The notes below the pieces were generated by a model. It was not told where the DNA came from, made no database searches, and saw only the letters and a list, made by a program, of their open reading frames with translations. Positions 26,529-28,499 of a stretch of 64,000 nucleotides of DNA are shown in pieces (the first letter of the stretch is position 1; the number at the start of each line of letters is the position of its first letter). Origin of the DNA: Escherichia phage JP4; the sequence record PQ330092. One strand, given 5' to 3'. The position numbers and the translations under genes are program-made.

Positions 26529-27156
26529 TTAAACACAAGTAGACAGGGGAAGCTCCTAGTGAACAACCTTTATGTACAGGCGAATTGTTAAAATTCAGCC
26601 TGGACAAATGCGATCACTAGGATTCTCCCCAGGCTAAACCCAGTAATCATAGGTAGTCATAAGTAATCATATATAAACATTTATATGAGCACCGTAGAAT
26701 CACAGAATGATTATATATGATTCAGTACTGATTAGTATAGACAAGAATGCTCAAGAATGCACGGGAAGGATTCAGTACTGATATGCCACTAAGTAGGCAG
26801 AGGAAGTCTGCCGTACTTTGTAGTTTCCAAGCTCCTTTTCCATTTTGCAAATTACATCAAATGTAATCAAAAGTAATCACGCAATGATTAGTACTGAATT
26901 ATTACTTTCACCTTAATTACAATTACCCTTTTACCCTTCGGGGTAAAATTCAATTACCCCTTGAGGCTCCAGCAAAAAGTTGGTTAGTACTCCATCCTAA
27001 ATCTCGATCCTAAAAATTTTGGAGTACCTATGAAATAAAAGTTGGATCTTCGAAAGTTGAAATTTACGTTGGGACGTTTATGATTTGTGGGATATAATGA
27101 TGTTTGTAGACGGGTAGTTCTCAAGAATATCAGTACTGAATGGTGAAAGAAAGTTA

Positions 27157-27184
27157 TTGACATTATGATTCAGTACTGTATAAT
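27157..27184 (+). promoter_or_regulatory. sigma70-type promoter with no downstream ORF
   Basis: TTGACA 27157-27162, 16-bp spacer, TATAAT 27179-27184. Confidence 0.55.
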
Positions 27185-27190
27185 GTTCTA

Positions 27191-27300
27191 CATAGAGAGA
27201 TGAGTTGCTGCGAACAATTCATTTACTCTACCTCCTGTCGTGAGACAGTACAGAAAAGATAGTTCCTCCTGTGGTGGTACATCTTTTTGAACCTCATATG
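27191..27300 (+). ncRNA. candidate non-coding transcript with two CCUCCUGU motifs
   Basis: Downstream of promoter 27157; no ORF; TACCTCCTGTCGTG and TTCCTCCTGTGGTG; T5 run near 27285. Confidence 0.3.
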
Positions 27301-27368
27301 AAAATTGTAATAACAGTACTGATATTAACAGAATGGTGTCAGTACTGATTTTAATCTAAAGCATTATG

Positions 27369-27388
27369 CCACCAGCACAAGCTGGTGG
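27369..27388. other. perfect hairpin whose two arms are Chi and its complement
   Basis: CCACCAGC-ACAA-GCTGGTGG. Confidence 0.8.
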
Positions 27389-27512
27389 ATTCCCTCTAAC
27401 AGTATTCAGTACTACATGATAGTCTTCATCCTCCTAGGGTAACATAGTGAGGGCTATGATGGCAGTACTGAATACTCCCTTTCAAAAGATAGATCTATGG
27501 TATAGTACTGAC

Positions 27513-27700
27513 GGATTTTGGGTGTAGTTACCCTGGATGGATTTTGGACGTAGATATGTCTAGCCCTCCAGAAGTCTGGAAGTAAAGATGGCTATCCATC
27601 TAGACGGCTAAACGGCTAGATTTCTGGATGGCTGGATGGCTAGACGTTTGGACGGCTAAACGGCTAGATGGTTACACGTCTGGAAGTATAGACGGCTAAA
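27513..27700. repeat. iteron-like short direct repeats
   Basis: GGATTTTGG x2; GACGGCTAAACGGCTAGAT at 27603 and 27651, partial at 27691; TCTGGAAGTA at 27575 and 27679; GGATGGCT x2. Confidence 0.8.
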
Positions 27701-27849
27701 TCAAAATTTTATTTTGTTTTTCCAATAGTTCCCCTACCGCGTGGGGATAGTTTCCCCGCAGTATCTGTAGTTAGATTTTTCTGAATCTGGAATCATTATC
27801 TTATAAACTGGGGGCAATGTCAACGACCTGGCCGGATATTTTTAAAAAT

Positions 27850-27914
27850 TTTTTCAGTACTGAATTTTGGGCGTAACTATGCACCCGGTGGGCTTGAGTC
27901 TTTCTCGACTTGAT
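27850..27914 (-). ncRNA. candidate box RNA (minus strand)
   Basis: Minus-strand promoter TTGCTT-16-TATAAT at 27921-27948; the transcript carries AGCCCACCGGGTGCATAGTTACGCCCAAAATTCA; no credible ORF. Confidence 0.3.
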
Positions 27915-28039
27915 GGAACTATTATACAGTACTGGAAAAATAAAGCAATACCCTGGATGAAAAAAGTTTTAATTAATTTGCTTGCCATCCTGGGCCGGAC
28001 TATGGTACTATATTTCAGTACTGAGAAAGTGCGTTTACC

Positions 28040-28129
28040 TGCTAGGGTGCGGGAGTGTATCCTTTTTTTATATCTTGAATTTTGGGCGTAATTCCGCACC
28101 CTCTGGGGTTTCCGCTTTCTCGCGTCTAT
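28040..28129 (-). ncRNA. candidate box RNA (minus strand), paralog of 27850..27914
   Basis: Minus-strand promoter TTGACT-16-TATAAT at 28136-28163; the transcript carries GGGTGCGGAATTACGCCCAAAATTCA and a 9-bp inverted repeat AGGGTGCGG/CCGCACCCT. Confidence 0.3.
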
Positions 28130-28315
28130 GTAGTAATTATACGCTTTTTCAGGATCAAGTCAATACCTAAAAACAAAATAATTGAAAATAATTTAACGCG
28201 TTTAAACGGCCTGTAAAGCCCTGGAATGATTGGAATGGTGCAAATGTATAGCTTATGTGTATTAATGCGTTAGAATGCGTCTGAGGCCGTTTTATGGGGT
28301 GTAGTAGTGATTTGG

Positions 28316-28408
28316 TTGATTCAGTACTGAATAATAGTACTCCTATATAGAAAGATAGTTCCCCTGGATTGATTCAGTACTGAATAATAGTACTCCTATA
28401 TAGAAAGA
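28316..28408. repeat. 40-bp exact direct repeat x2
   Basis: TTGATTCAGTACTGAATAATAGTACTCCTATATAGAAAGA at 28316-28355 and 28369-28408. Confidence 0.9.
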
Positions 28409-28439
28409 AAACTATTTTAAAAGTATTTGTAGAAAGTAC

Positions 28440-28499
28440 TTGCACCGTACTGATAAAAGCGTATAATGTTTTACATCGAGAGCGGGAACACTTCCCGCT
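28440..28499 (+). promoter_or_regulatory. early promoter with 5' hairpin, cassette 1 of 22
   Basis: TTGCAC-16-TATAAT, then AGCGGGAA-CAC-TTCCCGCT. Confidence 0.65.

Follow-up and report, generated by a model that had tools for sequence, protein, structure and literature searches.

The hexamer AGTACT is a highly iterated palindrome of Rak2-like jumbo phages and a candidate recognition site for a phage DNA-binding protein

In this study, we analyzed the occurrence of a single palindromic hexamer, AGTACT, in a 64,000-nucleotide stretch of the Escherichia phage JP4 genome (PQ330092; this whole stretch is hereafter called the window), where a preliminary description had drawn attention to its abundance at positions 26701-28460. 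We show that, in the Rak2-like jumbo phage clade, AGTACT is a highly iterated palindrome maintained by selection and not by composition, codon usage, or repeat spread. Given the arrangement of the sites, we postulate that AGTACT may be the recognition site of a clade-specific, two-fold-symmetric (i.e., dimeric) phage DNA-binding protein that would coat or mark the phage chromosome and be able to occlude early promoters. We assign this reading, in which binding is deduced from the sequence, a probability of roughly 0.5.

AGTACT is enriched in coding and intergenic DNA of the window

The best match to positions 26000-32000 is vB_EcoM_CRJP21 (97.9% identity), one of the Asteriusvirus jumbo coliphages of the 121Q/PBECO4/phAPEC6 group. 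Positions 26792-43886 and 46906-64000 are an exact direct repeat (100% identity, offset 20,114 bp). Every GenBank match stops exactly at the junction 46905/46906 and no record spans it, and the records fEgEco12 and E9.1 start at the base equivalent to 46906. The window thus passes from one 20,114-bp direct terminal repeat, the right copy, into the left one, and appears to be the wrap-around of a linear record; terminal repeats of ~22 kb have been published for the relative CBB (PMC5259590). Since the repeat is exact, only the 238 AGTACT sites within positions 1-46905 (46.9 kb) are independent. The parts of the window are as follows:

1-46905, unstranded: non-redundant part of the window, with 238 AGTACT (5.1/kb), comprising 140 in open reading frames (ORFs), 97 intergenic, and 1 across a boundary.
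26792-46905, + strand: right copy of the terminal repeat, with the highest AGTACT density; in this early region, small genes follow strong sigma70-type promoter/stem-loop cassettes.
46906-64000, + strand: left copy of the terminal repeat, truncated at the window end; its AGTACT sites duplicate those in 26792-43886.
26701-28460, unstranded: the interval flagged in the preliminary description; non-coding, the initial ~1.7 kb of the terminal repeat at the physical left end of the chromosome (repeat boundary at 26792).

The window as a whole contains 349 copies of AGTACT, compared with 22.1 ± 4.4 in dinucleotide shuffles (~16-fold), making it the window's commonest hexamer. The preliminary description had allowed that the excess might disappear against a codon- and composition-aware null model, but it persisted. 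Coding DNA holds 140 sites versus 43.7 ± 5.2 when synonymous codons were shuffled within genes, which keeps both the protein and the per-gene codon usage, and versus 18.3 ± 4.1 when codon order was shuffled; a codon-usage or composition artefact is thereby ruled out. First-order shuffles of intergenic DNA gave 5.1 ± 2.3 sites, compared with the 97 observed. Coding sites occur in every reading frame (60/33/47), and the protein sequence itself is distorted by AGTACT: the Ser-Thr dipeptide occurs 129 times versus 72 expected (60 versus 17 for those encoded by AGTACT), and Val-Leu occurs 112 times versus 67 expected.

Recounting the interval at 26701-28460 gave figures identical to those described earlier (19 AGTACT, 12 of them as CAGTACTG), as did the segment at 34389-35197 (six copies), and the reported extension to the 12-bp palindrome TTCAGTACTGAA is present at 27853, 28320, and 28373. 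However, the over-representation is not a local one, as the interval holds 10.8 sites/kb versus 9.5/kb for all intergenic DNA and is no hotspot. Nor did the portrayal of the motif as a feature of promoters and terminators hold, with 59% of the independent sites located inside ORFs and with the trait being genome- and clade-wide.

The excess extends across the genome and the Rak2-like clade

With the aim of placing these counts in a whole genome, we joined seven segments into the complete 121Q genome (348,532 bp). AGTACT is its single commonest hexamer, with 903 copies in 348.5 kb (7.6-fold), compared with expectations of 118 at zero order and of 100, 181, and 350 at Markov orders 1, 2, and 3, respectively. 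The most over-represented 8-mer of 121Q is CAGTACTG (194 copies, 57-fold). Site density ranges from 11 to 65 per 10 kb, with the maximum (65) in the terminal-repeat homologue. CGTACG and GGTACC have zero copies in this genome.

Further analysis of other phages (50 kb sampled from each genus) and of host DNA revealed the following observed/expected (O/E) values for AGTACT:

RaK2 (Klebsiella): 7.1
GAP32 (Cronobacter): 15.2
CBB (Pectobacterium): 9.6
fHe-Yen9-04 (Yersinia; Yen9-04 below): 13.0
XaC1 (isolated on Xanthomonas): 18.7, the strongest
PA5oct: 0.2
Atu_ph07: 0.12
rV5: 0.14
T4: 0.7
E. coli K-12: 4 AGTACT in 100 kb versus 23 expected

Every Rak2-like genus sampled is thus enriched (4.6- to 18.7-fold across 121Q, EJP2, RaK2, GAP32, CBB, fHe-Yen9-04, and XaC1), and AGTACT is the top palindrome in each enriched phage. 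Since the hexamer is ~65- to 125-fold denser in phage DNA (2.6-5/kb) than in the K-12 sample (0.04/kb), it would mark phage DNA. GTAC is low in the K-12 samples as well (244 versus 390 expected).

Other palindromes show the opposite tendency. Between 23 and 29 of the 64 palindromic hexamers are missing per 50 kb in each AGTACT-rich phage, among them GGATCC, CTGCAG, GAGCTC, GGTACC, and CGTACG, compared with 1 in PA5oct and 7 in T4. Such a loss of palindromes is a classic restriction-avoidance signature, and the avoidance of other palindromes makes the positive selection for AGTACT more striking. Moreover, ~900-1,900 ScaI-type sites per genome predict an extreme sensitivity to any AGTACT-specific restriction system.

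The closest parallel in distribution is HIP1 (GCGATCGC) of cyanobacteria. Like HIP1, AGTACT is a short palindrome whose genome-wide frequency exceeds expectation by about an order of magnitude, in non-coding DNA and in all frames of coding DNA beyond codon usage, and it is kept across a clade while its positions turn over. Unlike HIP1, it is viral, differs in sequence, is denser (one per 180-390 bp), and takes fixed positions in promoters. A link to cognate methyltransferases has been proposed for HIP1; none could be shown for AGTACT. Chi (GCTGGTGG) and DNA uptake sequences are likewise short words held at high copy number by selection, which a protein machine reads genome-wide as a species or self signature, but they are asymmetric and orientation-biased, unlike AGTACT.

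Chi is itself abundant in these phages. Positions 1-46905 carry GCTGGTGG eight times on the + strand and five times on the - strand, versus ~0.16 per strand expected by our own estimate; the 121Q genome carries 18 and 11 copies versus ~1.1 expected per strand, and the Chi-related words CTGGTG and CCACCA rank among the top hexamers. This enrichment suggests protection of a linear chromosome from RecBCD.

Selection acts on the number of sites more than on their position

Comparison with relatives at two levels of divergence revealed that the sites are conserved above their surroundings. In 121Q (91.7% identity), 161 of 193 aligned sites are intact (83%, versus 68% for flanking hexamers 8-14 bp away; p = 9e-7), and in EJP2 (81.8% identity) 51 of 72 are intact (71% versus 42%; p = 7e-7). 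This margin over the flanks is equal in ORFs and between them. Between genera, only ~16-21% of coding sites match a site in the aligned 121Q codons (15 of 83 in RaK2, 6 of 38 in GAP32, and 11 of 53 in Yen9-04), yet these three phages keep 2-4 sites/kb in those genes despite ~80% positional turnover. Selection therefore acts on site number more than on position. Many weakly selected sites, with number favoured over position, form the pattern of a genome-wide reader, unlike a set of individual operators. The earlier proposal that selection favours the palindrome is borne out by the codon-aware nulls, by conservation above the flanks, and by the density kept across genera in spite of this turnover.

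A neutral by-product is strongly disfavoured, whether through mutation or repair bias, codon or dipeptide preference, or the spread of PeSL-type promoter/terminator cassettes. Such an origin would accommodate the many intergenic sites in near-identical, evidently copied promoter cassettes, as well as an order-4 Markov expectation of 741 against the 903 copies observed in 121Q, whose sub-words are abundant themselves. However, 59% of sites lie in ORFs, outside the cassettes; observed counts stand 18-30 standard deviations above the codon-aware nulls; and the conservation above the flanks recurs at both divergence levels. Furthermore, the same hexamer is kept in genera with little nucleotide similarity and ~20% shared positions, but it is not enriched in related phages of similar GC content (T4, PA5oct, and Atu_ph07). 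Finally, one-mismatch neighbours are not depleted (O/E 0.6-2.3), and the C-to-T deamination product AGTATT (AGTATT/AATACT) is 1.65-fold over its expectation. Because these neighbours are undepleted, there is no signature of repair-driven conversion, and an origin through very-short-patch (VSP)-like repair is ruled out.

Symmetric flanks argue for a DNA-binding protein over a type II enzyme

The sequence around the hexamer is under symmetric and graded preference in every genus. C at -1 (G at +1) is favoured 1.3- to 2.9-fold, G at -1 occurs at 0.2- to 0.7-fold, and T is favoured at -3 and -4; the flank preference is weakest in XaC1. The preferred extended form is CAGTACTG, and the longest is ATTCAGTACTGAAT, found twice, both times in the terminal leader. 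The longer perfect palindromes are mostly non-coding, with TTCAGTACTGAA being intergenic in six of seven cases. In addition, neighbouring sites are 20-24 bp apart (about two helical turns) about twice as often as expected, both in the window (13 versus 5.4 ± 2.1) and in 121Q (26 versus 12.9 ± 3.5). The longest palindromes are located as follows:

28319 and 28372 (28319-28385), unstranded: two perfect 14-bp palindromes ATTCAGTACTGAAT in a 53-bp tandem duplication, with a second AGTACT 13 bp after each.

The duplication that hosts them (28316-28408) is perfect, carries ATTCAGTACTGAATAATAGTACT in each copy, and lies directly upstream of the first terminal-repeat promoter.

These data bear on a second explanation, namely that AGTACT is the target of a phage enzyme with ScaI-like specificity, either an orphan methyltransferase that sets an epigenetic self-mark or a nickase/nuclease that makes ends for recombination-dependent replication or packaging. 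We consider this rather unlikely. An invariant, exact 6-bp palindrome is the typical type II recognition format, and several uncharacterised endonucleases are annotated in 121Q. The clade also has orphan methyltransferases: 121Q encodes the C5 cytosine methylase gp91 (PF00145) and the small phage Dam-family methylase gp417 (PF05869), together with a sigma70-like factor, and homologues of the Dam-like enzyme occur in Asteriusvirus, Klebsiella jumbo phages, and GAP32. Moreover, the RaK2 authors reported methylation-dependent resistance to restriction enzymes, with a bisulfite signal at CpG and no 5-hydroxymethylcytosine (hmC) pathway.

However, a ScaI-type enzyme would be expected to read a six-bp core without flank preference, and the symmetric preferences seen here extend to 8-14 bp, which is unusual for type II enzymes. 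Graded palindromic flanks up to ATTCAGTACTGAAT therefore favour a DNA-binding protein over a type II-like enzyme. Methylation would not explain why a site is multiplied 8- to 16-fold or why dipeptides are distorted, and the undepleted one-mismatch neighbours, AGTATT included, show no repair-driven signature. The Dam-like family occurs in >1,000 unrelated phages and is too widespread to track the trait; gp91 belongs to the C5 enzymes, and methylation in RaK2 was signalled at CpG, which AGTACT does not contain; and the second Yen9-04 methyltransferase (g080) is rV5-like and shared with rV5-like phages, which are AGTACT-poor. None of the three could be tied to AGTACT.

AGTACT occupies fixed positions in early promoters and hairpins

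We examined strong sigma70-type promoter matches on the + strand and found that 27 of 45 carry AGTACT between -50 and 0. The start of the site lies 7-8 bp ahead of the -10 hexamer in 17 promoters and at offset -27 in 9, where the final T of the site doubles as the initial T of a TTGCAA -35. In several promoters, two sites bracket the -35 element, and class A promoters carry an extra TTCAGTACTGAAAAC 23-24 bp upstream, past an UP-like A/T tract. Both promoter classes named in the preliminary description were recovered on the + strand, the one with the hexamer at the -35 flank (AGTACTTGCA, with the site fused to a TTGCAA -35) 17 times, and the one with the hexamer in the spacer before the -10 as TTGACA-N9-11-AGTACT 14 times and as AGTACTGTATAAT 10 times. 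The following are representative:

27157-27184, + strand: consensus sigma70 promoter (TTGACA-16-TATAAT) whose spacer is filled by TTCAGTACTG directly 5' of the -10.
28435-28467, + strand: class A promoter that has a GTATAAT -10 and a TTGCAC -35 to which AGTACT is fused; it precedes the first terminal-repeat gene (28466-28885).
30113-30168, + strand: full class A cassette (TTCAGTACTGAAAAC, UP-like A/T tract, AGTACTTGCAA at the -35, 16 nt, TATAAT), with sites 23 bp apart; the full cassette recurs at 35976, 39993, and 43265.
36746-36781, + strand: promoter with two sites bracketing the -35 (AGTACTATTGACA-N9-AGTACTGACATAAT), 22 bp apart; it recurs at 33906, 37008, and 44795.
14730-14748, - strand: one of the terminator-type hairpins of the RCC1 array, GCCAGTATCAAGTACTGGC, whose stem contains AGTACT.
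6210-6229, + strand: hairpin CCAGTACT-ATTA-AGTACTGG, with AGTACT in each arm.

The promoter sites cover positions that RNA polymerase touches without reading, which is where a repressor would sit. Their geometry, with palindromes abutting or overlapping the -35 or -10 at fixed distances (offset peaks at -7/-8 and -27), fits that of an operator, but operators would be confined to regulatory regions, and 140 of the 238 sites are inside ORFs. The earlier suggestion of a dimer operator that shuts off early promoters is consistent with this geometry. However, an early-promoter operator alone is insufficient for genome- and clade-wide sites, because 59% of them lie in ORFs, AGTACT is the commonest hexamer of 121Q, and every Rak2-like genus sampled shares the trait.

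Phage proteins of a related kind are known. The stoperators of cluster A mycobacteriophages (e.g., L5) and the TF1 sites of Bacillus phage SPO1 are bound by phage DNA-binding proteins at many genome-spread sites, some of which overlap early promoters, and they down-regulate transcription. Stoperators are asymmetric, orientation-dependent, and intergenic, and number ~25-35, and TF1 recognises hydroxymethyluracil-containing DNA. AGTACT sites, by contrast, are symmetric, lie mostly within genes, and outnumber stoperators 30- to 60-fold.

The early region of the window resembles the PeSL cassettes of T4-type phages (RB49/phi1), where small ORFs alternate with a repeated near-consensus sigma70 promoter and G-rich stem-loop (PMC2839356, PMC4122927). 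Here too, near-consensus sigma70 promoters with downstream G-rich stem-loops (GGGGAGAA..TTCTCCCC) are repeated between small early ORFs. An AGTACT element is not part of the PeSL description ('GTACT' is absent from its text), and PeSLs account for the repeated promoter context but not for the ORF sites. The window also contains a promoter class that lacks AGTACT, seen in six near-identical terminator-promoter composites (-10 hexamers at 1135, 2549, 35905, 39925, 43194, and 45452). Each consists of GGGTTGACTTCGGTCAGCCC, a T-run, and then GCTATAAT or GCTATTAT, and the -35 TTGACT lies within the hairpin stem.

Among hairpins, the one reported at 6209 (6210 in our count) has AGTACT in both arms. 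The statement that every terminator of the RCC1 array has the site was slightly overstated: nine CCAGT..ACTGG hairpins lie between 7358 and 20476, eight with the full AGTACT and one without, and the quoted form GCCAGTAC..GTACTGGC is exact only at 13517. The array itself comprises ~12 paralogous RCC1-repeat genes (7382-21652, - strand) directly upstream of the terminal repeat. It is common to every Rak2-like genus sampled, with remoter homologues in rV5-like coliphages and Clostridioides phages.

Host proteins are very unlikely readers

A reader supplied by the host, e.g., the nucleoid occlusion protein SlmA, or RNA polymerase with the hexamer as a promoter building block, is in our view very unlikely. 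The SlmA site is the 12-bp palindrome GTGAGTACTCAC, in which G1, T2, a purine at 3, A4, and G5 are needed for binding, and SlmA sites in E. coli, like Noc sites in Bacillus subtilis, are palindromes for a dimeric protein that are scattered to mark the chromosome and not to regulate single genes (PMC3020112). The central hexamer of the SlmA site is identical to AGTACT, but the required flanks fail. In 46.9 kb, there are 0 matches to GT[AG]AG[CT][AG]CT[CT]AC and 0 to GT[AG]AGTACT; GAGTACTC has zero copies in the window, and G at -1 (position 3 of the SlmA site, where a purine is needed) is the most avoided flank. SlmA was accordingly rejected. The host chromosome holds only tens of SlmA sites, in contrast to the hundreds to thousands of AGTACT sites in 350 kb, which track the phage clade and occur in a phage isolated on Xanthomonas as well.

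As for RNA polymerase, the hexamer does supply bases to the -35 (AGTACTTGCAA), to the -10 (AGTACTAT), and, in AGTACTGGCATAAT variants, to a canonical TGn extended -10. However, promoter use leaves the 140 ORF sites and the palindromic requirement unexplained. We also considered the TG of AGTACTG as a general extended -10 element. In AGTACTGTATAAT, this TG occupies -14/-13 and misses the canonical extended -10 position before TATAAT by one base, and the canonical TGn is found only in the AGTACTGGCATAAT variants. The idea was discarded because the TG is one base out of register at the TATAAT promoters.

A dimeric phage protein as the putative reader

In the reading that we favour, the long perfect palindromes in non-coding DNA would be high-affinity sites for the phage protein, and the bare hexamers occurring every few hundred bp through ORFs would be low-affinity ones. 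Together, they could load the protein across the whole phage chromosome. At early promoters, where sites abut the -10 or -35 and often form pairs 20-24 bp apart, bound protein would occlude RNA polymerase, and such occlusion could provide a timed shut-off or other control of early transcription.

Several points weigh against this reading. The exact 6-bp palindromic core is equally readable by a type II-like methyltransferase or nuclease, and orphan methyltransferases are present in the clade. The promoter-embedded sites are partly copies of a few cassettes and hence not independent events. The coding/intergenic split stems from a crude greedy ORF call (93 genes, 78% of the sequence), each of the other genera is represented by its 50-kb sample, and the K-12 depletion is drawn from 100 kb (1.00-1.05 Mb and 2.50-2.55 Mb). 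In addition, no candidate DNA-binding protein for AGTACT survived our search. No DNA-binding domain was found in the 10 largest or the 10 most conserved ORFs of the window, and an XRE-type regulator (CBB_511, beside the CBB sigma factor) was set aside as it is confined to the Mimasvirus/Erwinia branch.

Among the conserved ORFs of the terminal repeat, the only domains recognised were a DksA-like zinc finger and a ParE-like toxin. The latter domain (Pfam PF24732, E = 6e-11) is in the ORF at 41708-41962, whose conserved upstream partner at 41242-41646 (phrog_8127) has an N-terminal motif FATRxxAR...F(K)D.G...G.RW; a paralogue lies at 29306-29572. Both ORFs of the pair are conserved in GAP32, Yen9-04, and XaC1, and together they form a predicted toxin-antitoxin-like early gene pair inside the terminal repeat. 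The upstream partner gave no structural or profile match when checked as a Phd/YefM-type palindrome binder.

A role in condensation or packaging was weighed as well, with AGTACT as the site of a virion or condensation protein (e.g., the RCC1-like 'DNA condensation' paralogues) or as a bendable element that eases 350 kb into the capsid. The genome-wide, roughly regular distribution fits such a role, as do the clustering of sites at the physical chromosome end and the large RCC1-like array that adjoins the terminal repeat in all members examined. Nevertheless, density is not uniform but varies about sixfold with a peak in the early region, other TA-centred palindromes are not enriched, and RCC1 paralogues occur in AGTACT-poor rV5-like phages too. 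The label 'DNA condensation', moreover, is an annotation and not a tested function. We regard this role as improbable.

We further speculate, as a doubtful extension, that AGTACT may serve as a sequence-encoded self-identity tag, whose ~900-1,900 copies per genome would take the place of a chemical mark and let a phage protein distinguish phage from host DNA. No global base substitution is apparent in Rak2-like phages, which lack 23-29 of the 64 palindromic hexamers per 50 kb, and in RaK2, for which its authors reported no hmC pathway, digests indicate site-specific methylation. If true, such a tag could underlie selective destruction or silencing of host DNA, selectivity in transcription, replication, or packaging, or a shielding of the phage chromosome; functionally, it would be the counterpart of hmC in T4 or of Chi in E. 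coli.

Over-represented words such as Chi, uptake sequences, HIP1, and SlmA/Noc sites each revealed a protein machine that reads a whole chromosome. AGTACT is similar in kind to HIP1, Chi, and SlmA/Noc sites; what is new is its occurrence in viruses and its phasing with promoters. In a viral genome of 350 kb, no word is commoner than this hexamer, which distorts protein sequence and is nearly absent from the sampled host DNA. We found no description of AGTACT or its extended forms in the full-text literature on jumbo and Rak2-like phages (including the CBB, RaK2, PeSL, and jumbo-phage overview papers; subscription journals were outside this scope, so an earlier description is possible). A reader, if there is one, would probably act as a central organiser, overlooked until now, of transcription timing or genome identity in phages that are now being isolated for therapy. 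AGTACT also provides a simple metagenome signature for the clade.

Other features of the window

Three ORFs of the early region are of note for their domains, namely a DksA/TraR-type zinc finger (37865-38122), possibly a binder of the RNA polymerase secondary channel; an AAA/STAND-like nucleoside triphosphatase (2583-3353); and a weak, below-threshold protein-kinase-like match (42510-43151). A search of Rfam with positions 26000-29000 matched no family. The physical left end begins with AGTAGGCAGAGGAAGTCTGCC, a small hairpin, and the right end closes with ...GGGCGGGTAACCT. Positions 27538-27700 (and again 47652-47814), 750-900 bp from the physical left end, hold ~16-20 units with an 8-bp period and the consensus (R)GA(N)GGCT (e.g., GGATGGCT, AGACGGCT, and AAACGGCT), which may be a putative binding array for terminase or a replication protein.

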